Shown: piece by piece, positions 34,313 to 59,982 of the stretch
Numbering within the stretch: position 1 is the first letter of the stretch
How the letters are laid out: the number at the start of each line of letters is the position of its first letter
Sequence record: PP400778
DNA from: Escherichia phage FL15
Length of the DNA: 64,000 nucleotides
Strand: one strand, 5' to 3'
Notes under the pieces: model-generated
Told to the model about the DNA's origin: nothing
Databases searched by the model: none
The model's input: only the letters and a program-made list of their open reading frames with translations
Program-made: the position numbers and the translations under genes

Positions 34313-35704
34313 TCAAATATAGTCTACTCGATACCGCGCACGGGTAACACCCACATATAATAACTGCATTGCCAATTCAAAGTCAACATTGTCTGTACAC
34401 ATGCAAGGAGTATACAGGAACACGCGGTCTACGCTGATCCCTTGTGACTTATGAATGGTGCAAGCTGGTAATGCTTTTACATTCAAGAACATACGCTTCA
34501 TCGTCCAGAATGAATCCCAATCTGGTTTAAATTTTGGATTCTCTTTCTTCATTTCGCGATATTGTCCGGCGACCGTATTCAGATAGATAGAGAAAATGTT
34601 CTTCTGACGTTGTTCTGTCAGAATGTTGATTTCTACTAAATCTGGTTTATCTGTAGTGATTCCGACTGCATCTAAACCGACTTTCTGATTTAGGATTTCT
34701 TTGTCTTCGTCATCATCGACGCTTTCCACTTTCAGAGTATATCCTAAAACTGGTTGCGGATCTACCCCCGTGCAACGTAATGTAAATTCACGCGGGATGA
34801 CCTCTTTAACTCGGATCATCTCACCATTGTTAAAAATAACATTGGGAATCTTCTTCCCGCGTTCATCTCGCAGATATTCGATCAATGGTTCCTGAGTAAC
34901 CAGAATTTCATCTACAATCACTGGTTCATCGGTGTTATAAACGCGCTTACGCACAATTTCATTTAGTTTTTCGACGCTCTTGTTAGTGTAGGCCAGAATA
35001 CGGTTTTCTAGAAGGTCTTCCGGCGTTTTAACGGTTTCGAAATAATGCTTCATAAACTCCGGCAGAGTTGAGCTATGGAATACACCCTCGTTACCGCACT
35101 GCTTTTCGAATACCCATTTACCATTACGGACAGCGGTCGCCACATCAATTATTGGCGCATTAGATCGTTTAATCTCTGTAAGTTCTACATTCTGAAACCT
35201 TTCATCGGTGAAGAAAGGAGAGATCGACGTTGCACCGCCCGGATCAACTGGTCGTAACTGGTACAGATCACCCACGGCAATAATAACAATTCGACCGTTG
35301 ATACTCTTCATGAGAATATCAAATAGTTTCTTATCGACCATACTCGCTTCATCAACAATGATGATCTGAACATCATCTAGCTTAGGAGTATCTTTTTGCT
35401 CAAATACTTGAGTATCTTCATAGTTGGTCGGGTTTAGTCGCAGTAGTGCATGTAAAGTAAATGCTTGACGACCTACCGCTTTACTCAAAACTTTTTTAGC
35501 CTGGTGGGTAGGCGTTGCCAAAACCACACCAGTTACACCACGGCGGACCATTTCCTGAACAATGAATTTCATCATTGCGGTTTTACCAGTACCCGCCGCA
35601 CCACGGACAGTTGTATGCTTCTTTTGTTCAATGCGTTTCATTAGAACATCAAAAGCATGTTTTTGCCCGTCTGTTAACATATCGAAAGTTAATACTCTGC
35701 TCAT
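34313..35704 (-). CDS. dda: Dda DNA helicase (SF1)
   Basis: 463 aa; Walker A GAAGTGKT, VDEASMV, EIKRSNAPIIDVATAVRNGKW, TIHKSQG, LYVGVTRAR match T4 Dda. Confidence 0.95.
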   Translation of the reverse strand: MSRVLTFDMLTDGQKHAFDVLMKRIEQKKHTTVRGAAGTGKTAMMKFIVQEMVRRGVTGVVLATPTHQAKKVLSKAVGRQAFTLHALLRLNPTNYEDTQVFEQKDTPKLDDVQIIIVDEASMVDKKLFDILMKSINGRIVIIAVGDLYQLRPVDPGGATSISPFFTDERFQNVELTEIKRSNAPIIDVATAVRNGKWVFEKQCGNEGVFHSSTLPEFMKHYFETVKTPEDLLENRILAYTNKSVEKLNEIVRKRVYNTDEPVIVDEILVTQEPLIEYLRDERGKKIPNVIFNNGEMIRVKEVIPREFTLRCTGVDPQPVLGYTLKVESVDDDEDKEILNQKVGLDAVGITTDKPDLVEINILTEQRQKNIFSIYLNTVAGQYREMKKENPKFKPDWDSFWTMKRMFLNVKALPACTIHKSQGISVDRVFLYTPCMCTDNVDFELAMQLLYVGVTRARYRVDYI

Positions 35705-42374: not shown

Positions 42375-43445
42375 TTATGCTAACATATCTTCGATTTCTT
42401 TGTCAACTGCTTCGTCGCTGATCACTTGCCCCAGCTTATAATGATCGTTGATTGCTTCGTTAAACTTATCGTTTGTCAGAAGTGGTTTCCAGAACTCAAT
42501 GCTATTGGTTTCTTTAGCACGGAACTTGCGTTCTTCGGTTTCCATCTCTCCGGTCTCGGTATTTAGGATTGAACGGGAATACCAGCCGTTTGACGGTTTC
42601 ACCACCCAGCCTAACTCTACAGCCAATTCCAGCAAGCCGGAATAAGGATCGATGCCACCGCTAAATGTTACGCTAATCGGGAACTTCGATTTTTCTTTAA
42701 CGGTTCGTGATTTTTCCGCATTCAGGATAAAATCATAACCAGTAATTTCGGTTCCTTCTTTCTGCTGACGACGACCAATAATGAAAACTTCATTGGCTGA
42801 ATACATCGCGCCCGTACCGCCGGACATAACGGTCTTACTAAACATTTCTTGCGTTTCGTAAGTGTGGTTAATAGCGATGCACGGGATATCATTCATAGTC
42901 AGATACGGCGTAACCATACGGAACAAGCCTTTAAGTGCTTTCGCTCGCGTCATATCCTGTGCGGATTTCTCATTAATCGCGTCTTCAACTTCTTTTTTAC
43001 TTGCTAAGTTACCGATTGAGTCAATAAAGATGATCACTTTATCTTCACGGGTAATTTGCTCAAGCTGGTTCATGATTTCAAATTTAAATTCTTCGATGTT
43101 CTTGATTGGAACATGCACCACGCGATCAGGATCTACACCCATAGATTCAAGATAAGCGGGTGTAATACCGAACTCAGAATCAAAGAACAAACACGCCGCA
43201 TCAGGATTCTGTTTCATGTATGCACTAACACAAGTTAATCCCATGTTTGATTTAAAGTGCTTAGACGGACCAGCAAAGAAAATCAGACCAGATTGAAAGC
43301 CTTTTTTAAGATCACCTGAAAACGCAATATTCAGCATCGGGATCTTAGTGCGAGTATTTGTTTTTTCGTTAAAGAAGCTGGATTTAGACAGTACCGCAGT
43401 AGTTTTCAGGGTAGAGTTCTTTTTCAGTTTTTCCAGTACAGACAT
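42375..43445 (-). CDS. uvsX: UvsX recombinase (RecA-like)
   Basis: 356 aa; matches T4 UvsX (RTKIPM.NIA.SG, FFDSEFGITPAYL.SMGVDP.RV.H, FIDS.GNLASKKE.EDA, CIAINHTYETQEMFSKTVM.GGTG). Confidence 0.95.
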   Translation of the reverse strand: MSVLEKLKKNSTLKTTAVLSKSSFFNEKTNTRTKIPMLNIAFSGDLKKGFQSGLIFFAGPSKHFKSNMGLTCVSAYMKQNPDAACLFFDSEFGITPAYLESMGVDPDRVVHVPIKNIEEFKFEIMNQLEQITREDKVIIFIDSIGNLASKKEVEDAINEKSAQDMTRAKALKGLFRMVTPYLTMNDIPCIAINHTYETQEMFSKTVMSGGTGAMYSANEVFIIGRRQQKEGTEITGYDFILNAEKSRTVKEKSKFPISVTFSGGIDPYSGLLELAVELGWVVKPSNGWYSRSILNTETGEMETEERKFRAKETNSIEFWKPLLTNDKFNEAINDHYKLGQVISDEAVDKEIEDMLA

Positions 43446-43706: not shown

Positions 43707-46385
43707 TTAAATGTCAAACAGGTCTGTAAGAGATGCCACTTTTTCATATTGCAGCTTTGCAGCCGTGGTAATGTTCTCCAGTGGTTTGACGAAAGTCTTA
43801 TTAAACAACAAAGGCCAGTCTAACCACTTTAACACCTTTGATTCAATTTCTGGAGGAATACGAGTACCGGACAACCAACCAAAACAGATTTCTCCAAACG
43901 GATTTCGATCTTTCAGCGGTACAATCATAACCTTCTCGCCTTCACGAATCGGATCTAGTCCGAATTTTCGAGCATTACGATTATAACACAATACACTCTT
44001 AACCGCATACGGACAACCCTTAATCGGATACCCGTTTGAATCGCTGTATTTCTGTAGGTTGTTTGCAGATGATACCGCAGCAACATCAAGATAGTCAAGT
44101 TTTCTAAATTCTTGCTCAAAAATACCGTAGTATTCCTGCAACGACTCTTCACCTTCCTGCAACATACGGCGAATACATTCTTTCAGTGATTTCTGACATG
44201 CTTTAGGGGTGGAGCTACGTTGCGTTTCCAAGCCCATGATTTTTAGCTTAGGTTCAGCAAAGCGCGTTCCTTCCATATCCCAAACATTAAGAGCATAACG
44301 CTTTTTACCAGTCCAGAATCCACCGATACCCGCAGATTTCAATGGAGGACCAGCAATTGCCTCACGGTCCATAAACATCAAGTGCTCATAGTTGTTCATG
44401 TACTCGCATAACTCGCGATATCCCTTGTCGATAATAGGTTCCATTCGATGTTTACCGAAATTATCAAGGAAGTCAACAAGTTTTTCGGTATCGTCGAAAC
44501 GGTCTTCCCCGCCAACCTTATCAACAACATTGTTAACCAGCACATAAACGGAGTCAGTATCACAATAACGAACATATGCAAAATCGGTTGTTCCACAAAG
44601 CTCGTTTAAGTATTCATTAATCTTACGCTCAATCCACTGAATTGCAAGCTGACCAAACAAGGTGATCGCACTAGCGTTACGGAGATCATAAAAACGGAAT
44701 TTAGGATTCCCCAACGCACCATAAAGGGAGTTGATCAAAACTTTACGAGAAAGCTGGTTTGTATTGCACAAGATCGACTCGTCTTTACATTCTTCCAGCA
44801 ATTTCTCTAAGGCATCTTTACTTAATTCAGAAAGCATCGATTTAAACGCTTCATCAAAGTCGTGACGCACTTCAACGCTATAGTTAATGGTTCCTCCATA
44901 AACATGATTTTCATCGTGTAGAATCGCTTTACAGAGTTCAGCATTGCGATCACATGCCAACATCATGTTTTTGTACTGCTTACGCTGATCGAATACCTTT
45001 TTAATCTCAATCGGTACGATACCGTGAATATCTTTTCTATACATCCATCCGTTAGGCGAGCAAGAATACTCATCACTCGGACGTGGTGCAGTTTTATTGA
45101 TATACTCGTGCATCGGTGCAGCATCAAAAGATCCAGCGATTGTTTCAGGCGAAATATTAACCTGTCGAATAATAGATGGGTACAGACTTGTTAAGTCAAA
45201 GCTCATCATCCAACGGTAAGCATTCGGCACAGGTTCTTTTACGAATGCGCCTGGATACGTCTGCTTAGGCTGTATCTTATTTTCCGGTACTACTTTACCC
45301 TCAGCTTTCAGAGATCCGAAGATAATAGCATCCCACACTTTCATCGGGTTATAAACATGGTTAAATTTAATCTTTGCATAGAAACATAGACTATACACCA
45401 GATCGATAAATCCACGCTTTTTATCAATCGCCAGAACACGATCAACGTCGCCGATGTTATAATCGATGTAAAGTTGATGGTTGTCATCACGCAATTTCTT
45501 TAACGGACCATCATAATCAACCTTACCGATTCCTGTCTCATATTCAGCAACATAATCTAATGCATATGTTGGTTGAGTCGTAAAGCTAAATTTCTTGTAC
45601 AGGTCAATATAATCAAGGCTTTCGATCCCCATGATCGTAAATGCTTCACGCTCGTTGCCAAAATCATCCTGTGAGATTCGGGATTTAATCTTACCGCACG
45701 GGCTTAGACGGTTAGCGGTTCTACTTCCGAACTTATTACTGATACGTTTAATGATATATGGAATATCGAATGTTTCTGTGTTCCAGCCAGTGAAACCAAC
45801 GGGTCGGTTTTCCTCAAAGAATCGGATGTATTCTAACAGCAATTCATCTTCTGTGTCATAGACGTTATAAACAACGCGCTCTACAATATCAGGTCGAAGA
45901 ATAGACTTGCTAGATTCCCAGATTTCACAGTTTTTTCCTTTCAAATCAAATACAAAGAAACGATCATGTACGGAATCATAATGCGTAATTGCATCGATAG
46001 GATATTTCGCTTCTTCTGGTTTAGGAAATTCTGGGGCAGTGACCTCGATATCAACCCATGCTACACGGATTTTATTTCGGTCATATCGAATCTCGCCTTT
46101 ATACGTATCAGACAGATAGGAGATGATAAAATCATCCATCCCTAGCGCCTCTTGCCCCATTTCTCCCATCTTTTTACGCCATTTGTTGGCCTCGTTCATA
46201 GAGGGGAATTTTTTAGCAATGCAAGGCTTGCCATAGATATCTTTATAATTCGTAACCATACCAGGCGCGGCATGATGAAATAAAGTTGGCGTATATTCAA
46301 CGTAACGCTCTTGTTCTTGTCCAGCATCATCAATATAACGCTCGTAGATCTTATCACCTACTCGCTCACATGACAGAAAATACAT
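43707..46385 (-). CDS. 43: DNA polymerase gp43 (family B)
   Basis: Start MYFLSCERVGDKIYERYID (AAGGAG SD); exo and pol motifs (FD.E, YNI.DV, SLYPSII, DTDS, KKRYA) match T4 gp43. Confidence 0.95.
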   Translation of the reverse strand: MYFLSCERVGDKIYERYIDDAGQEQERYVEYTPTLFHHAAPGMVTNYKDIYGKPCIAKKFPSMNEANKWRKKMGEMGQEALGMDDFIISYLSDTYKGEIRYDRNKIRVAWVDIEVTAPEFPKPEEAKYPIDAITHYDSVHDRFFVFDLKGKNCEIWESSKSILRPDIVERVVYNVYDTEDELLLEYIRFFEENRPVGFTGWNTETFDIPYIIKRISNKFGSRTANRLSPCGKIKSRISQDDFGNEREAFTIMGIESLDYIDLYKKFSFTTQPTYALDYVAEYETGIGKVDYDGPLKKLRDDNHQLYIDYNIGDVDRVLAIDKKRGFIDLVYSLCFYAKIKFNHVYNPMKVWDAIIFGSLKAEGKVVPENKIQPKQTYPGAFVKEPVPNAYRWMMSFDLTSLYPSIIRQVNISPETIAGSFDAAPMHEYINKTAPRPSDEYSCSPNGWMYRKDIHGIVPIEIKKVFDQRKQYKNMMLACDRNAELCKAILHDENHVYGGTINYSVEVRHDFDEAFKSMLSELSKDALEKLLEECKDESILCNTNQLSRKVLINSLYGALGNPKFRFYDLRNASAITLFGQLAIQWIERKINEYLNELCGTTDFAYVRYCDTDSVYVLVNNVVDKVGGEDRFDDTEKLVDFLDNFGKHRMEPIIDKGYRELCEYMNNYEHLMFMDREAIAGPPLKSAGIGGFWTGKKRYALNVWDMEGTRFAEPKLKIMGLETQRSSTPKACQKSLKECIRRMLQEGEESLQEYYGIFEQEFRKLDYLDVAAVSSANNLQKYSDSNGYPIKGCPYAVKSVLCYNRNARKFGLDPIREGEKVMIVPLKDRNPFGEICFGWLSGTRIPPEIESKVLKWLDWPLLFNKTFVKPLENITTAAKLQYEKVASLTDLFDI

Positions 46386-46417
46386 AATATAAACTCCTTC
46401 ACTTACGAAAGACACTC

Positions 46418-53265: not shown

Positions 53266-54291
53266 CTAACTTTTTGCGCTATTTACCTCGGCTAAAAGTT
53301 CATCAGAAATACGCTTGACCGCCGCAAGTTCTTCCGGTTCTAGGTTTTGTTCTTCCAGATATTCATATACCATCTGAATAGTGCTTTTAACTTCAATAAC
53401 ACCTGTTTCCTGTGATGCGCTACTCTCCAGTTTATGGACCACTTTTAGCTTGTGTACAACGGCCTCTAACGCGCTTTCTAACTTAGTTAACCCATTATCA
53501 GCAACCGTTGCAATAAGACGCACACTAAGCCCCTTAAAGCGTTCTACATCGATTTTATCATCTGACGGGTAAGTGATACGCACATGATAAGTTTTGTCAT
53601 TCTGGATAAACTCTTTTTTGTGTGTATCGGTATCGAATACCCAAAACCCACGCGGATCGTTTTCGTCACCCGCCGTTAGTGTGTATGGTGTACCGATATA
53701 CGTTACATTACCGCCATCGCTGATAGTATGAAAATGACCGGAAAACACTTCACGGTATTTCTTGAGGAAGTCCGCGCTATAACCTTCGGATTTTAGCCCT
53801 TTATAGAAATAGTAACCGGACAATTCCCAATGGCCTACACAATATTCGCTGAATGAGTTTTGAATAAACTCTAAAATCTCTGATTTATTGTCATCACAAA
53901 ACCACGGGAACAGATCAAATGATACACCATCAAAGGTAACTGTTTCCGGTTTATCGATAACCTTAATGCAATCATACTGGCTTAACACTTCACGCGGTGC
54001 GTTAGGCTGGATCTTGTTTCGTTTAAACATATCATGATTCCCGACCGTGATATAACAAGTAATTCCAGCCTCTTCCAGTAATGGGATGACCTTAGTACGG
54101 TTAAATTTCATGGTTTCATGGGTAATTGCTTTTCGGCAATCAAACCAATCCCCTGTTTGAATCCATGTCTTAATATTATGCTCTTTGGAGTATTCAACCG
54201 CTTTCTTGATGGTATCAAGAATATACTCATGCACCCACGGATCATCGCCACCGATACCAGTATGCAGATCACCTAAAAGCAAAATTTTCAT
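53266..54291 (-). CDS. 47: recombination nuclease subunit gp47 (Mre11/SbcD-like)
   Basis: 341 aa; phosphoesterase motifs (GDLH, GDWFD, GNHD, GHWE, GHFH) in Mre11 order. Confidence 0.95.
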   Translation of the reverse strand: MKILLLGDLHTGIGGDDPWVHEYILDTIKKAVEYSKEHNIKTWIQTGDWFDCRKAITHETMKFNRTKVIPLLEEAGITCYITVGNHDMFKRNKIQPNAPREVLSQYDCIKVIDKPETVTFDGVSFDLFPWFCDDNKSEILEFIQNSFSEYCVGHWELSGYYFYKGLKSEGYSADFLKKYREVFSGHFHTISDGGNVTYIGTPYTLTAGDENDPRGFWVFDTDTHKKEFIQNDKTYHVRITYPSDDKIDVERFKGLSVRLIATVADNGLTKLESALEAVVHKLKVVHKLESSASQETGVIEVKSTIQMVYEYLEEQNLEPEELAAVKRISDELLAEVNSAKS

Positions 54292-54333
54292 AGTCTCTTC
54301 CTCTCTTCGTTTTCGATGCTCTCACTATATCAC

Positions 54334-54359
54334 AGAAAAATAAAAAGGGAAACCCCTTT
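54334..54359 (-). terminator. intrinsic terminator
   Basis: Minus strand AAAGGG-GTTT-CCCTTT followed by TTATTTTTC, between the 54382 ORF and gene 47. Confidence 0.6.
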
Positions 54360-54381
54360 CAGAGTCTCCCTTATAAAGCCA

Positions 54382-54669
54382 TTACAGCATACTTAATACC
54401 GTTTGCCGTGTACTAATCCACATAGCAGAAAGCAGTTCTGGTGTGTGTGGCTGTTTGTAGATATCACGTAATTTTCCGATAGCGTAGATATACGCATCAC
54501 GATTATCATCGATGATAGCTTGTTCAGCCCACCGCTTAAGGCGTGCAATCTCTCGCGAGTTCTTACGCAAGATCTTTTCCGCTTTCTTAGCGGCTTTAGC
54601 CTCTAGTTCTGCTTGTACTTTGTCTACTTCATTCACTGCAATCTGGTCATGCTGTTCATCGTAAGTCAT
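54382..54669 (-). CDS. hypothetical protein
   Basis: 95-aa ORF. Confidence 0.45.
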   Translation of the reverse strand: MTYDEQHDQIAVNEVDKVQAELEAKAAKKAEKILRKNSREIARLKRWAEQAIIDDNRDAYIYAIGKLRDIYKQPHTPELLSAMWISTRQTVLSML

Positions 54670-54670
54670 G

Positions 54671-54904
54671 TTATTTTCCTTCTGGGATATAGTCGATGAT
54701 TAAAGAAAATTCATCTTCTGATACATTATAGCTATGTGAGATTGTACCCGTAAAGACCTCAAGATCCGGTGATTTGATATTGCACGGATCGATAATCACC
54801 GGAACGCCGCAATCTCTCAAAAATAATTTGGCGAAATACGGCACGAGGTCAGTTTCAAACTCTGCTTCTTCCAGCAAACGGGAAATGTTAATTTTCAATC
54901 TCAT
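54671..54904 (-). CDS. hypothetical protein
   Basis: 77-aa ORF directly downstream of gene 55. Confidence 0.45.
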
Positions 54905-55421
54905 AAAATTGGTCCAGGCTAGGCAATTCCTCGGTCAATACATCTTCAACCTTTGGCGCTTTCGGTTTATTGACCGATTCCTCGTAGTTGTTGATTTTAT
55001 CGTAAATGTCCTGTATGAATGCCTCATCAGCAATCTGGCACATATCAGCGTCGCGTTCGTCATATACATGATGCACAAAATATTTGTATTTTGCGGCTGT
55101 CGCTGTTCTCTCTTTTTTAATGCGCTGTACAAAAGCATTAAAGCACGCTTGCGTGATGTAAGCATGAGGATTTTTATACTTTGTCTCGTCAAAATTAATC
55201 AAACCCTTGACCGCCGCTTCGATTCCGTCGTCGATCATTTCTTCGCGCCATGTTTGACTATAACCAGAAAAGTTAAAACGACGTGATAGATTTTTAGAGA
55301 TTTGCATAATTGCTAGGCCGATTTGATCGCTCATTGGAACTTGCCGACCTTGTGCTGCAATTTGTTGTTTCCAACGGCAAATTTCTTCGTAAAGCTCTTT
55401 ATTGTTTACATAATCAGACAC
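54888..55421 (-). CDS. 55: late-transcription sigma factor gp55
   Basis: 177 aa; [66 protein letters not shown] match T4 gp55; GTG start with GAGGGTG SD. Confidence 0.95.
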
Positions 55422-55461: not shown

Positions 55462-56931
55462 CTATTCCCCATTACCATTATACTTTCTTTGCTTAGTTAT
55501 CCACACTCTAACCATCTCTACAGATTCACCGTCAGACGGATCAAGAGTTTTTCCTTTTTTCTTCATGCGGTACTTAAATCCGTTAAATCTTGCATTCTCT
55601 TGCTCGTTAAAGTCGAACATCTTTTTAAATGATTTTCGCCCTTTACGCTCACCACATTCTAGCGGAATCATTCGGTCTGTTATTACATTGGCATTAGGTA
55701 GAAACGTTTTTAGATAATCCACCAACGCCCAATCAGGAACATATAGATTAACATTCTCCTTGCTCTCGTTGTCTCTCAGGTTACAACGCAAACATAATTG
55801 AAATGCTGGTTCCAGATAATCAGACACATGACGCGCTTTCAAAAACTCGTTTGTCGGGAGATCACAACTATTAGCAAGACCTTTTAAAATATCAATCTCC
55901 CATCGTTGAGGGTTAAAGCTGAACATCACAGCAACATTTTTATGATGAATGTAAGAGTTAAGACCATAAGATCCGTAAGGTATCCGCTCACCAATACCAT
56001 TTGTACACGCTTCACGGTCCCGATTCACGGTATAAATGAAGTCATCGCCACATTCATTTTTAACCATATCAACAAGACGTTCAAAGGTATTGTTTGTTTC
56101 TGACTGGTGACGCGACCATCGTTCAGAGTCCGTCATAAGGATGATATTAACTCTATCTGTATTTTTATACTCTTTGAAATATAGTCTGGATTCTAGCGCA
56201 CTCGGAACAAAATCGCAATTTGCATAGTATCGTAGATACTTCCCACTATATGTATCAAAGAGATTTGCACATGCTATCGTAACCTTTTTAAAGTCTCCCC
56301 ACGTACCGTGTTTGTTATCGTTCAAGAAAACAATTTTCGACCCATTCTTCCGGTGTCCTTCGTTATGTTTTACCATAACGTTGATTTTCTTCTCTAATAA
56401 CGCCTCATAAAGCCCTCTAAGAGAAGAATCGATCATATCAGTACCATCCTTTGCACTTTCTATCTTTTCTTTGATAGCGGCCTTCTCAGAGTCTTTTAGA
56501 ACTAAGTTCTGTAGGCATTCCGATTCGTCGGCGATTGGTTCGCAATGCTTCGTGATAAGTTCAAGATTAGACTTAAACGGATACTCATTAAATTCAACCA
56601 GTTGAGGAACTTCATCAATGTAAAGAGCATATTCACCAAAAATTTTTGAACGTTCCATATTAGATAACGCTGTATGTGTAATGAATATCACATCAGCACC
56701 GTCTTTAACTGATTGCATTATCGACGCTTGCACTGTCTTAAGGCTTCTTAGTCGTGTGCTATCAATCAAGACAGCACGACCACCCATTCTTTTAAACTTA
56801 TTGTAAGATTGTTCACTTAAAACACGAGATGGCGAAGCAATAACCGCTTTTTCTTTTGTCTCTAGGACGTGGGAAAGTATAGCATCAGTTTTCCCCGCCG
56901 CTGGCAATGCGATTAATGTTTCAATCTTCAT
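55462..56931 (-). CDS. P-loop NTPase of unknown function (489 aa)
   Basis: N-terminal Walker A-like LPAAGKT and Walker B-like ALYIDEV; large Cys/Trp/Tyr-rich C-terminal region without recognisable motifs; sits where T4 has alpha-gt. Confidence 0.6.
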   Translation of the reverse strand: MKIETLIALPAAGKTDAILSHVLETKEKAVIASPSRVLSEQSYNKFKRMGGRAVLIDSTRLRSLKTVQASIMQSVKDGADVIFITHTALSNMERSKIFGEYALYIDEVPQLVEFNEYPFKSNLELITKHCEPIADESECLQNLVLKDSEKAAIKEKIESAKDGTDMIDSSLRGLYEALLEKKINVMVKHNEGHRKNGSKIVFLNDNKHGTWGDFKKVTIACANLFDTYSGKYLRYYANCDFVPSALESRLYFKEYKNTDRVNIILMTDSERWSRHQSETNNTFERLVDMVKNECGDDFIYTVNRDREACTNGIGERIPYGSYGLNSYIHHKNVAVMFSFNPQRWEIDILKGLANSCDLPTNEFLKARHVSDYLEPAFQLCLRCNLRDNESKENVNLYVPDWALVDYLKTFLPNANVITDRMIPLECGERKGRKSFKKMFDFNEQENARFNGFKYRMKKKGKTLDPSDGESVEMVRVWITKQRKYNGNGE

Positions 56932-57218
56932 TAGAAACCCTTACGTCGTGCTTTCTGGCATTTCTTGATCATTTTATCAGAAATTTCTCGCTTAGGTGCA
57001 ATCTCTTTCACACCGAAAGCACTAATGCCAAATTCAGAGAGAATATATTCAACCAACAATTCACGCACACGAGCTTTACCGATATTCACGCCGTTATTTT
57101 TCAGATATGTCTGGCCTTCGACTTGCATCAGATCTAAATCTGCGTCGGTAATATTGATTTCTTCCATGCGCCCAAATCGAGAATAAACCATGTGTGCGAT
57201 TGCATTGTGTACTAACAT
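56931..57218 (-). CDS. hypothetical protein
   Basis: ORF; start MLVHNAIAH with GAGGA SD; stop overlaps the NTPase start. Confidence 0.5.
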   Translation of the reverse strand: MLVHNAIAHMVYSRFGRMEEINITDADLDLMQVEGQTYLKNNGVNIGKARVRELLVEYILSEFGISAFGVKEIAPKREISDKMIKKCQKARRKGF

Positions 57219-57240
57219 AATATATTCCTCACTCAAGAAT

Positions 57241-57399
57241 TACTTAATGATACTTACTTTACCAGATCCATGACAATGAGCGCAACACCCATCACCACGC
57301 AATCCTGTTCCGTTACAGTGTTTACACTTCTTCAACGGTAAAGCCATTATAGCAAATAAAGCAATAATGAACACCGAAACTAAATTCTCAATAATCATA
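57241..57399 (-). CDS. 52-aa membrane-anchored mini-protein with two CxxCxGxG (DnaJ-type) zinc-finger motifs
   Basis: Below track cutoff; MIIENLVSVFIIALFAIMALPLKKCKHCNGTGLRGDGCCAHCHGSGKVSIIK; GAGGG SD; overlaps the nrdH 3' end. Confidence 0.4.
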
Positions 57400-57657
57400 A
57401 ATCGCCCTCAGTTCTTTATAGCCTCCAATGTGCTCGTTGTCAATGAATATCTGGGGGTATACAAACCGGAGGCTCTTTGAGTTTAGCCTCCCCGCCAGTT
57501 CTTCAATCATATCACGGTCGGGAATAATGTCAACCCCGACCTGCTTGAATACTGGTTTAAGTGTATACGGAATACCCAGATCATCCAGTAGCTTCATTGC
57601 ACTAATACAACCATAACAATGATAAGCCTCTTTCGGTATACCGTATATCTCGATCAT
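57388..57657 (-). CDS. nrdH: NrdH-like glutaredoxin
   Basis: 89 aa; thioredoxin-fold pattern with CYGC redox motif near the N-terminus; T4 nrdH position. Confidence 0.8.
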   Translation of the reverse strand: MIEIYGIPKEAYHCYGCISAMKLLDDLGIPYTLKPVFKQVGVDIIPDRDMIEELAGRLNSKSLRFVYPQIFIDNEHIGGYKELRAIYDY

Positions 57658-58138
57658 TTCTCAGCCTTTAATCTTTCTAGTTCTTCTTCCAGTTCCTTAA
57701 TGCGCTTCTCGCGTTCAATATCACGTTGGATCTTAGTGGCGAATACTCGTTTAAACTGATTATAGTCATCAATTTTAAATACTTCCTCTTCACCGTATCG
57801 ACGTACAGAAACTTCGTAGTTGTTGAAAAATTGTTCCAACATTGCATCAGTGGTCAGTTCTGCCGATACCACTTTAAAATGACGTTCTTCTGATTGCAAA
57901 AACCAGTTGTGCGCGTATTCCCGTACATCATCAACATTGCGGCAGGTGTATACCGTGCCATCAATTTCAATCGCAGAAACATAATCAACATCCGATGCAT
58001 GGTGATCAAATGCGATAACTTTAAATGGACGGTCGCCTATAAACTCTGCTATTGCATCATTTACAACGCTAAAGTTTGCAAAATCTTCTCTCGTTTTCTT
58101 ATCTTTCCACTGATAGGTCACGCCAGCAACAAACATAT
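57654..58138 (-). CDS. member of tandem paralog family (WxD N-domain + coiled-coil tail)
   Basis: Start MFVAGVTYQWKDKK (GAGGA SD); N-domain aligns with neighbours (TYxW+D ... DRPF ... IEIDG ... +FF.EV); Glu/Lys-rich C-terminus. Confidence 0.6.
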
Positions 58139-58962
58139 TACCATCCTCGCTCTTTACCAATCAAAAATTCAACTTCACGACGTTTAATGTCTTCTTGAAG
58201 GTCTTTAATCTTCTGTCGGTCTTGCATGATTTCATCCATCTTGTCAAGTGCCGCAATGAAATCATCGAAACGTTCAAAGGTTTTACCTTCATTTGCTTCG
58301 CCAAATTTAACCATTGTCAGGCCGTAACGACTACTAAACAGACGTTTCAACTGTCCAACGATTTTAGAATCAGTGGTTATAACTTCCAATTCTTCTACTT
58401 CACGAAAGAATTTTCTATCAGAATCAATAAACCAGCTAGTTCCTTTATGGTCTCTATCTTCGGTTGCGCTCATTAGAGTATGGTCTTTACCATCAATTTC
58501 AATTACATCAATTTGCCCACATGGACTAACATTTTTAACAGTAAAAGGTCTATAATTTATTGCTCGTGCAATAACATAATTAAGGTTAGATACGTTTTCA
58601 GCATAATGACAGAAGTCGGTCATAGCATTCGCATCTTTCCAAGTATAAGTTTTACCAACTTCCCATTTCTGGGGAACTTCTTCAACTTCACGAAAGAATT
58701 TTCTATCGAATGGACTAAAGAAATATGTTGCAGTCCAAATGTCTTTTCCTGTAGCAGTTTTCGCCGTATGATAAACACCGTCTAGCTCTATTGCATCAAT
58801 CCAACCGTTACTCTCGATCTCGATGATGGTAAATGGCTTGTCACCAATAGCTGCACTGATATCGCTGTTAAGTGGAGAAAGAACACCTTCTCCGTTAGTA
58901 ATAAACTCAGTTTTAGCGTTTTCATCTCTCCAAGTGTAAGTTTTACCAATTTCCCATTTCAT
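58138..58962 (-). CDS. member of tandem paralog family carrying two N-domain copies
   Basis: 274 aa; MKWEIGKTYTWRD...DRKFFREVEE repeated as KWEVGKTYTWKD...DRKFFREVEE, then a helical tail. Confidence 0.65.
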   Translation of the reverse strand: MKWEIGKTYTWRDENAKTEFITNGEGVLSPLNSDISAAIGDKPFTIIEIESNGWIDAIELDGVYHTAKTATGKDIWTATYFFSPFDRKFFREVEEVPQKWEVGKTYTWKDANAMTDFCHYAENVSNLNYVIARAINYRPFTVKNVSPCGQIDVIEIDGKDHTLMSATEDRDHKGTSWFIDSDRKFFREVEELEVITTDSKIVGQLKRLFSSRYGLTMVKFGEANEGKTFERFDDFIAALDKMDEIMQDRQKIKDLQEDIKRREVEFLIGKERGW

Positions 58963-58974
58963 AATATATTCCCC

Positions 58975-59440
58975 TTAACCGATTTTATCAAGTTCGTTTA
59001 ATGCTTTCTCAGCTTCCTGTATAGCTTGCACTCTTTCCGGCATTTTGTCAAGAAAATCTTTCAACTCTTCAAAACTGGAGATATGACGCAAGGCGTTAGC
59101 ACCGATAGCCGCATGTGATTTGCATTCAAAGCGGATTTTATAATTATCCATCGCCAATTTGAGAAGATCAATTAATTTAGATTCTTCTGGAATAATAATT
59201 TCTTCAAATCTGCTACGGTCATGATCCAGAAACCAACAAGATAGACCTACATCGGTTGAACTCATATAAGTTCCATCATGAAGATAAACAGACCGCACGT
59301 ATCCTTTTTTTCGCATCAACCGACGCAACTTTAAACGGTAATCGCAGATATTTCAAATAATCAACATCATACCATTTAAAAAATTGGTTTGCATCTTTTA
59401 CATCTTTCCACGCATAGGTCTTACCAGCTTCCCATTTCAT
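58975..59440 (-). pseudogene. member of tandem paralog family interrupted by a frameshift at an A7 run
   Basis: N-domain start MKWEAGKTYAWKD (ATG 59440) is in a different frame from the rest (58975-59328); frames join at the A7 run (plus T7 59305-59311) and would be continuous with one fewer A. Confidence 0.55.
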
Positions 59441-59444
59441 AATA

Positions 59445-59972
59445 TCATCTCTCATTTTTGATACGTGATTCTAATTGGATCATACGGTCGCGCGTTTGTT
59501 TGTATTCTCGGATAGCACCGATCCGGCTAGGCATACCATCCAGTACGCTCTTAATACCTTCTAGGGTAGTAATTTTGGCAATGCTATTATGTAACCCCAT
59601 CTTATCGATCAACTGAATGTCGTAGGCTTCCATAAGCAGACCCAGGCGTTCTAAAGTTAGGTCTTCTTCTTTTTCTTCCGAATCTGGAATCTTAGGTTCA
59701 ATAGCAACTTCGGTAAAGAAACGACGCTCACCCGACCAAAACCACACACCGGAACAGCCAATAGGGGATTCTTTTAACGTCATAGAGTCGAAATTACTAC
59801 CAATAATAGTAATTTCTCTAACATCACCATCATCGTCAAGGTCTTCTACCCTAAACGGGCGACCAGCCAACAAGTCAACAATACATCTGTTAATAGACGA
59901 CGAAAATTTAGTAAGTTCGGCTTTCGACGCTTCGCATTCAATCTTGTAAGTTTTACCAACTTCCCATTCCAT
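59445..59972 (-). CDS. member of tandem paralog family
   Basis: Start MEWEVGKTYK with GAGGTG SD; same N-domain and helical C-terminal tail. Confidence 0.65.
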   Translation of the reverse strand: MEWEVGKTYKIECEASKAELTKFSSSINRCIVDLLAGRPFRVEDLDDDGDVREITIIGSNFDSMTLKESPIGCSGVWFWSGERRFFTEVAIEPKIPDSEEKEEDLTLERLGLLMEAYDIQLIDKMGLHNSIAKITTLEGIKSVLDGMPSRIGAIREYKQTRDRMIQLESRIKNER

Positions 59973-59982
59973 AATAATCACC

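Follow-up and report, generated by a model that had tools for sequence, protein, structure and literature searches.

A predicted superfamily 2 helicase encoded beside gene 55 of RB49-like and other T4-like phages, and its primase-fused relatives

The proteins closest in overall shape to the one described here are XPD, Rad3, DinG and CasDinG, which are 5'->3' DNA helicases of superfamily 2 (SF2). The protein is encoded by a 489-codon open reading frame (ORF), complete from ATG to stop, on the minus strand of a 64,000-nucleotide stretch of Escherichia phage FL15 (PP400778; this whole stretch is called the window, and its first nucleotide is position 1). The ORF corresponds to RB49p044 (RB49ORF044c) of phage RB49. 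In Nolan et al. 2006 (PMC1524935), RB49ORF044c already appears with a DEAD/DEAH match, a marginal one (E 0.069), and Kazlauskas et al. 2018 (PMC5862659) found All3500-type AEP primases fused to domains with "only remote similarity" to SF2 helicases, predicting a virus- and plasmid-specific helicase family with its closest relatives in T4-like phages. The helicase-like nature of the protein is therefore already published, as a weak prediction only. No function has been assigned to it by anyone, in line with a first-pass annotation made from the letters of the window, and a literature search on Krischvirus, helicase and DinG gave nothing specific to the gene.

XPD, Rad3 and DinG carry a four-cysteine 4Fe-4S (iron-sulfur) domain between motifs Ia and II, whereas the ORF has approximately 60 residues at this place and no cysteine among them. 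Motif II is DEAH in XPD, Rad3 and DinG and DEVP in the ORF. Furthermore, identity to XPD and DinG is 10 to 16%, and the ORF product is much smaller, at 489 amino acids, and has no N-terminal accessory domain. Because the iron-sulfur cysteines, the DEAH box and any match to the DEAD_2 and Helicase_C_2 models are absent, the ORF is not filed under XPD/DinG. It is best filed in the uncharacterised SF2 helicase family of viruses and mobile elements that was predicted in 2018. Like the ORF, the pVOG1685- and pVOG9714-like helicases (PMC5862659) are uncharacterised proteins of "some T4-like phages" with remote similarity to SF2. These helicases are related to the domains fused to All3500-type AEP primases, and a profile of the T4-like clade studied here also finds such fusions. 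The family of the ORF presumably corresponds to pVOG1685. Of the T4 helicases, neither Dda (SF1B) nor UvsW (SF2) is an ortholog, and the structural match to UvsW is much weaker than that to XPD and DinG. New in this analysis are the resemblance in structure to XPD/DinG, a complete assignment of motifs, the extent of the family, the synteny of the gene and a corrected locus, together with fusions in which the helicase precedes a primase-polymerase (PrimPol) and PriCT region, and their island context.

The ORF product is very probably an ATPase with an SF2 helicase fold. The Pfam DEAD/DEAH model (PF00270) matches residues 11 to 130 at 27.3 bits against a cut-off of 26, and it also matches 12 of the 23 relatives used for the clade alignment. 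An AlphaFold2 model built from the family alignment has a mean pLDDT of 87.2 and a pTM of 0.76 and consists of two alpha/beta lobes, which in the model are two tandem RecA-like lobes. The model has 176 Foldseek matches in the PDB at E<=1e-3, led by alignments over the whole length to XPD (3crw, 5.4e-11; 3crv, 2vl7 and 5h8w), CasDinG and Staphylococcus aureus DinG. Below these leaders the fold scores drop to <=14.4 for Escherichia coli DinG, Ino80, Chd1 and HsdR, with Hna at 13.6 and T4 UvsW at 12.2. A profile of the broader set of short family members gives weak PDB matches to the N-terminal part (motifs I to Ia), first to reverse gyrase (E 1.4e-4) and then to PriA, NS3, XPB, UvrB and Mfd. At the level of profile similarity, these matches confirm predicted membership in the SF2 superfamily, not in a subfamily. 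PHROGs places the ORF in phrog_2467 (E 1.8e-174). An NCBIfam search with the ORF gave zero matches, and a PADLOC search gave noise only (E 0.009 to an unrelated DRT model).

Motif names (Table 1) were assigned from fold position and conservation. Residues are called invariant with respect to the 23 relatives, whose identity to the ORF is as low as 32%, and 190 family members from outside the T4-like clade, aligned to the clade profile, provided a wider check. Residues P10, G13, K14, T15, D106, E107 and P109 are invariant; the Walker A and B motifs recognized in the first-pass annotation are thus genuine, and they persist in all 23 relatives. Motif II reads DE[VT]P throughout the T4-like clade. 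In the wider family profile, ASPSRVLSEQS lines up with motif Ia in the helicase domains of reverse gyrase, PriA and DDX proteins. Among the 190 distant relatives, T85 of the motif Ib-like segment is kept in 85% and H86 in 73%, N223 of the motif III-like strand (a strand at residues 216 to 221 in the model) in 66%, G323 and N325 of motif V in 100% and N340 in 89%, and the predicted arginine fingers R382 and R386, with Q378, in 99%. The insertion after motif II lies where we take XPD to carry its Arch domain and, with XPD and DinG as the top fold matches, the two may be equivalent. W477 in the C-terminal tail is invariant within the clade and falls in a gap in 96% of the distant relatives.

Table 1. 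Features of the ORF and its neighborhood, in window coordinates
Feature	Coordinates	Strand	Basis or remark
Whole ORF, 489 amino acids plus stop	55462..56931	-	RB49p044 / RB49ORF044c; PHROG 2467
RecA-like lobe 1, first part, residues 1-112 (motifs I, Ia, Ib, II)	56596..56931	-	Pfam DEAD PF00270 and model secondary structure
Motif I / Walker A ALPAAGKT, residues 8-15	56887..56910	-	GK[TS] wherever aligned in distant relatives
Motif Ia-like ASPSRVLSEQS, residues 32-42	56806..56838	-	S33, L38, Q41, S42 invariant
Motif Ib-like VIFITHTAL, residues 81-89	56665..56691	-	V81, F83, T85, H86, L89 invariant
Motif II / Walker B LYIDEVP, residues 103-109	56605..56625	-	DE in 95% of 190 distant relatives
Insertion of ~100 amino acids, residues 113-213, between motif II and motif III-like strand	56293..56595	-	Model secondary structure
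Motif III-like strand VTIACAN, residues 217-223, back to lobe 1	56263..56283	-	T218, N223 invariant
RecA-like lobe 2, residues ~255-420	55672..56169	-	
Motif IV-like FIYTVN, residues 298-303	56023..56040	-	Y300, N303 invariant; N303 in 95% of distant relatives
Motif V-like GLNSYIHHKNVAVMFSFNP (GLNSY...FSFNP), residues 323-341	55909..55965	-	
Motif VI-like QLCLRCNLR, residues 378-386, predicted arginine fingers	55774..55800	-	Q378, R382, R386 invariant
Family-specific VPD motif, residues 398-400	55732..55740	-	V398 in 93%, D400 in 94% of distant relatives
Basic helical C-terminal tail, residues 430-489, specific to T4-like clade	55465..55644	-	Helices 435-486 in model
gp55.2 homologue (DUF7570), upstream neighbor; stop overlaps helicase start (TAATG)	56931..57236	-	RB43: same juxtaposition
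Gene 55 (late sigma factor), downstream neighbor	54888..55421	-	40 bp past helicase stop, no terminator between
a-gt.5 homologue	54671-54904	-	
a-gt.4 homologue	54382-54669	-	
90-bp spacer, counterpart of T4 alpha-gt slot (gap between a-gt.4 homologue and gene 47)	54292..54381	-	
Gene 47	53266-54291	-	

The first-pass annotation was right about a conserved P-loop NTPase, its ORF and its motifs, and its account of the remainder of the protein needs revision. The C-terminal 350 or so amino acids, described as devoid of nameable motifs, form the second RecA-like lobe, with equivalents of motifs IV to VI, and the protein is one contiguous core of an SF2 helicase, to which an insertion and a short tail are added, instead of a small NTPase domain joined to a large domain of its own. 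Nor are residues 140 to 489 rich in Cys, Trp and Tyr: they contain 2.3% C, 1.4% W and 4.6% Y against 1.2, 1.25 and 4.0% in the long ORFs of the window, a mild enrichment for Cys only. The only cysteines invariant in the clade, C130 and C380, are not conserved among the 190 distant relatives, and no cysteine is kept outside the T4-like clade. Conserved catalytic residues next to unconserved cysteines fit selection on an ATP-hydrolysing motor and argue against an iron-sulfur or other cysteine-bound cofactor. A cysteine-based metal site, as the remark on cysteine richness might imply, is ruled out in that cysteine conservation stops at the clade.

An exhaustive profile search over 1.84 billion cluster representatives retrieved 1,324 family proteins at E<=1e-3, of which 768 reached E<=1e-10. 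The family has two size classes, short forms and long forms (approximately 750 to 890 amino acids). Sixty long forms share a homologous C-terminal extension that follows the helicase core where the phage protein has its tail. Its alignment contains conserved acidic motifs (LDxDxG... and G-x-D-x-S-K) and then a helical bundle, and 3 of 13 long-form members match Pfam PriCT_1 (best E 1.4e-4). The long forms thus join the helicase to an AEP primase-polymerase and PriCT. This order, helicase first, is the commonest one found here (approximately 60 proteins), whereas the section of PMC5862659 on the pVOG1685/9714-like family gives only the order primase then helicase. One protein (P0118) has the latter order, with AEP-like motifs recognized by eye (IVFDFDEDED and GSGHVYV) and then the helicase at residues 367 to 832, and the T4-like clade profile reaches it at E 5e-28. 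Long forms occur in bacterial chromosomes, e.g., of Bradyrhizobium and Belnapia. On two metagenomic contigs a long form directly follows a gene for a tyrosine integrase and an HTH_17 gene, and on another a short form follows integrase and AlpA genes and precedes DUF927 genes. Judging from P4-like and similar islands, we take this layout of integrase, AlpA or HTH_17, and helicase to be a replication module.

The primase-helicases of integrative elements and satellites, such as the P4 alpha protein, likewise unite primase and helicase and are encoded after integrase and AlpA/HTH_17 genes. We assume that P4 alpha-type proteins have a hexameric SF3/SF4 helicase on the C-terminal side of the primase. 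The helicase of the long forms differs in being of SF2 and usually N-terminal, and the phage protein differs in having no primase domain.

Two loci with long forms contain further genes of interest. In Bradyrhizobium sp. 172 (CP064701; L008, 8807-22319), the helicase-PrimPol-PriCT gene lies among unannotated small genes, and its neighbors include an ATP-dependent DNA ligase gene and one for a 707-amino-acid protein with a faint ORC/CDC6-like match; the region may represent an integrated element, so far uncharacterised, that brings along a replication and ligation kit. The island of another long form (P0221; L009:12759-20834 and L010:10614-18689) also has genes for a metallophosphatase, a PLD-like protein, a phosphatase/ADP-ribosylglycohydrolase fusion and an Mrr-like restriction protein, which look like defense-type cargo.

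In non-T-even T4-like phages the gene is common and its position stable. A tblastn search with the 489 residues matched 243 phage records; identity was at least 95% in 58 of these (Krischvirus, RB49-like phages) and below 60% in the other 185. A coding sequence of phage vB_EcoM_G2494 is 100% identical, and the ORF has the same G+C content (0.39) and skew as its surroundings. Gene 55 is the immediate downstream neighbor of the helicase gene in four genera: Krischvirus, Bragavirus (PM2), Tulanevirus (Aes012) and Ceceduovirus (AS-zj). In the rearranged genome of RB43 it still follows nrdH and 55.2, and gene 34 is next to it. Divergence of the ORF product (identity of 42% to PM2, 36% to Aes012 and 35% to AS-zj) tracks that of gp47 (47, 56 and 38%) and gp55 (61, 50 and 34%). 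This pattern fits long vertical inheritance with the phage backbone, followed by absence in T-even-type lineages, most simply through loss. Short forms also occur in unrelated phages of approximately 140 kb, namely, Pseudoalteromonas phage PH357 and two metagenomic contigs.

The gene occupies the slot of T4 55.1, upstream of gene 55. In the T4 record the order of transcription is nrdG-55.8-nrdH-55.6...55.2-55.1-55-a-gt.5-a-gt.4-a-gt.3-a-gt.2-mobB-a-gt-47.1-47, and in the window it is nrdH, a 52-amino-acid ORF, the 55.2 homologue, the 489-codon ORF, gene 55, the a-gt.5 and a-gt.4 homologues, a terminator and gene 47. Because T4 alpha-gt (alpha-glucosyltransferase) lies downstream of gene 55, the ORF is not at the alpha-gt position where the first-pass annotation had placed it. 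The ORF runs in the same direction as gene 55 and the upstream paralogue array. That annotation correctly gave the ORF and the array one direction, and it counted two small ORFs before the array where there are three (the 55.2 homologue, the 52-amino-acid ORF and nrdH). Beyond the 47-55-nrd neighborhood, the ORF has nothing in common with alpha-gt or gp55.1; a gp55.1 that is a remnant of the helicase gene was also considered and is ruled out (E 0.52 over a short fragment).

Transcription signals point to expression with the surrounding block. The first terminator-like hairpin downstream of the ORF lies after the a-gt.4 homologue, and the late-promoter sequence TATAAATA is not found near the ORF, its two copies in the window being near tail-fiber genes. 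This arrangement suggests pre-late cotranscription with the nrd-55 block. The stop codon of the 55.2 homologue overlaps the start codon of the helicase gene in Krischvirus (TAATG in the window) and RB43, and translation of the two is possibly coupled. An unannotated upstream ORF of 102 amino acids overlaps the helicase start likewise in the Proteus phage PM2 (overlaps at window position 56931, L002:6001-6004 and L004:3501), and in Aes012 the 55.2 homologue is four genes upstream of the helicase gene and does not adjoin it.

With the gene and its conservation, the fold, the motifs, the synteny and the primase fusions as its support, the explanation that we favor, with moderate confidence, is a stand-alone SF2 DNA helicase or translocase with an accessory role in replication or recombination-dependent replication. 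ATP would be clamped between the two RecA-like lobes, with K14, D106 and E107 of Walker A and B on one side and the motif VI arginines R382 and R386 on the other. Hydrolysis would move the enzyme along single-stranded DNA, probably 5'->3' as in its structural neighbors XPD and DinG, and so unwind the duplex. Such a polarity suits fusion to a primase, because an enzyme of this kind rides the lagging-strand template. The T7 gp4 protein and the T4 gp41-gp61 pair ride that template. In the phage, the protein would act on phage DNA as an accessory helicase alongside gp41, Dda and UvsW.

Several observations weigh against this proposal. Lobe 2 is recognized by structure only, and the DEAD match covers the N-terminal part: at E<=1, Pfam gives no Helicase_C, DEAD_2 or Helicase_C_2 match to the ORF. 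All PHROG matches are labelled "unknown function," and no solved structure in the PDB was meaningfully matched by a sequence profile of the T4-like clade. Searches of the literature by locus tags and family identifiers returned Nolan et al. 2006 and no functional study. Polarity and substrate are read from fold similarity at approximately 10 to 16% identity; the replication role is guilt by association, through fusions in distant relatives (E ~1e-30 to the phage profile); and the sole sign of coupling is the stop/start overlap. The gene is absent from T-even phages, which manage without it. The need for an extra helicase is also unexplained, since the phage already has gp41 and Dda (34313-35704), both encoded in the window, and presumably UvsW.

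A different role in replication, as an origin-recognizing initiator helicase like UL9 of herpesviruses, is unlikely, and of the alternatives it survives best. Such a protein would bind and melt the phage origin and hand over to gp41/gp61, a protein-based initiation route that T-even phages lack. Its relatives are fused to primases and stand in the replication-initiator slot of integrative islands, and a resemblance to UL9 has been pointed out for the sister group pVOG9714 (Kazlauskas et al. 2018, PMC5862659). The UL9 profile (Herpes_ori_bp, PF02399) matches one relative only (P0108), below the cut-off (E 0.014; 13.9 bits against 20), and does not match the ORF itself in Pfam. The clade-specific basic tail could bind DNA, but no recognizable DNA-binding or origin-binding domain was found in the protein. 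Likewise, a hairpin-rich, gene-free stretch of 1.2 to 2.1 kb adjoins the gene in three non-T4 phages, whereas in the window no repeat-rich noncoding region lies beside it, the spacers being 0 and 40 bp. Finally, the top fold matches, XPD and DinG, are repair-type helicases.

To a bolder extension we attach equally little weight: the phage protein would be the stand-alone form of a monomeric SF2 lineage that serves many mobile elements as replicative or initiator helicase, and it would give non-T-even T4-like phages a protein-driven route to origin opening or primosome loading, possibly together with the gp55.2 homologue. T4 gp55.2 is reportedly a DNA-binding inhibitor of topoisomerase I. If the family does consist of monomeric SF2 helicases with a replicative or initiator role, bacterial mobile elements would have an unusual way to replicate, and the origin-opening or primosome-loading route would be an initiation mechanism outside the T4 paradigm.

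Slightly less probable again is a target of RNA or RNA-DNA hybrid, with the protein acting on mRNA or translation like DEAD-box RNA helicases or removing R-loops like DinG, CasDinG and UvsW. DEAD/DEAH is the only Pfam family above threshold, and many DEAD-box proteins are among the fold matches; these align over single lobes only, however, with lower Z than XPD and DinG. The Q motif of DEAD-box proteins is absent, because the P-loop starts at residue 8 and the 7 residues before it leave no room. The DEAD, SAT and HRIGRxGR motifs are missing as well, with DEVP, TIACAN and QLCLRCNLR as their counterparts in the ORF. For the hybrid, CasDinG is reported to unwind RNA/DNA hybrids (PMC10450177); the fusion partners of the family, on the other hand, are DNA primases.

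A conflict gene, encoding a translocase that strips or evades host defense or excludes competing phages or satellites and is not a replication factor, appears no more probable than an RNA target. The defense helicases Hna, CasDinG and DdmD are among the fold matches, many variable accessory ORFs lie in the nrd-55 region of T4-like genomes, and T-even phages lack the gene. Yet stable synteny and divergence in step with core genes in phages of Escherichia, Proteus and Aeromonas are unlike the fast turnover of conflict genes, the PADLOC match is at noise level, and nuclease or effector domains are absent from the protein. A catalytically dead helicase-like scaffold is highly improbable: it is a general possibility for helicase-like proteins, with nothing specific in its favor here, and all residues for ATP binding and hydrolysis are invariant over very large distances.

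Least probable of all, and refuted on position and fold, is a P-loop NTPase with a novel C-terminal domain that replaces alpha-gt in DNA modification, for which the sole support is that RB49-type phages lack alpha-gt and, at the syntenic place, gene 42 and beta-gt; the ORF is in the wrong slot, its C-terminal region is a RecA lobe, and BLASTP finds no similarity to alpha-gt (E 0.096 over 18 residues). In the window, uvsX (42375-43445) is directly followed by gene 43 (43707-46415), with no gene 42 or beta-gt between them, where T4 presumably carries both. Homologues of alpha-gt are present in 657 records, with T-even and Klebsiella-phage types among the matches listed. Petrov et al. 2010 (PMC2993671) reported gene 42 in Aeromonas phages 44RR, 31 and 25, and Aeromonas phage 25 also carries a helicase homologue (P0034, PHG25ORF049c). 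Since phage 25 has both, the helicase gene does not simply take the place of the hydroxymethylcytosine system, and strict anticorrelation with that system is ruled out.

T4 is the textbook model of phage replication, and many of its relatives keep an additional conserved helicase, as we read the gene, that is absent from T4. The carriers include RB49-, RB43-, Aeromonas-, Proteus- and Cronobacter-type phages, and phage therapy makes use of several. The gene appears to have held its place next to gene 55 ever since these genera split, and in its family, which numbers at least 1,300 clusters, fusion to PrimPols recurs in integrative islands. In addition, a misleading idea, that of a replacement for alpha-glucosyltransferase, is removed.

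Gene-free stretches adjoin the helicase homologue in the three non-T4-like phages of approximately 140 kb (L012:11497-12672, L013:11488-13247 and L007:1731-3899). They contain many dispersed hairpin palindromes with stems of 5 to 6 bp and loops of 3 to 4 nucleotides, for example, TGTTAC-N4-GTAACA, TGTTCCACGTGGAACA and TATAGCGTTGCTATA. No tRNAs were found in them, and they could be origins or promoter/terminator cassettes.

The 90-bp spacer before gene 47 is where T4 has mobB and alpha-gt. Within it lie the T-tract and the greater part of the stem of an intrinsic terminator-like hairpin (scan coordinates 54372-54345), the tail of which runs on towards gene 47. RB49 has an HNH endonuclease gene (RB49p040) in this slot, whereas the window has the empty spacer, so the window derives from a relative of RB49 that lacks this homing endonuclease, as vB_EcoM_G2494 also lacks it.

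The 52-amino-acid ORF between nrdH and the 55.2 homologue (57240-57398, minus strand) has a hydrophobic N terminus and a CxxC...CxxC pattern (CKHCNGTG...CAHCHGSG). It resembles a small membrane-anchored zinc ribbon and is kept in RB49 as RB49p046. Farther upstream, at 57654-59981 on the minus strand, is a run of paralogous ORFs with a repeated "W(E/K)xGKTYxWKD..." module; its members have 168, 274 (two modules) and 178 amino acids and no Pfam matches. Amid these paralogues, two ORFs (58975-59328 and 59276-59455) overlap in different frames at a place where G2494 and RB49 annotate a single 465-nucleotide coding sequence, and the split may be a frameshift or an insertion or deletion in the FL15 genome.

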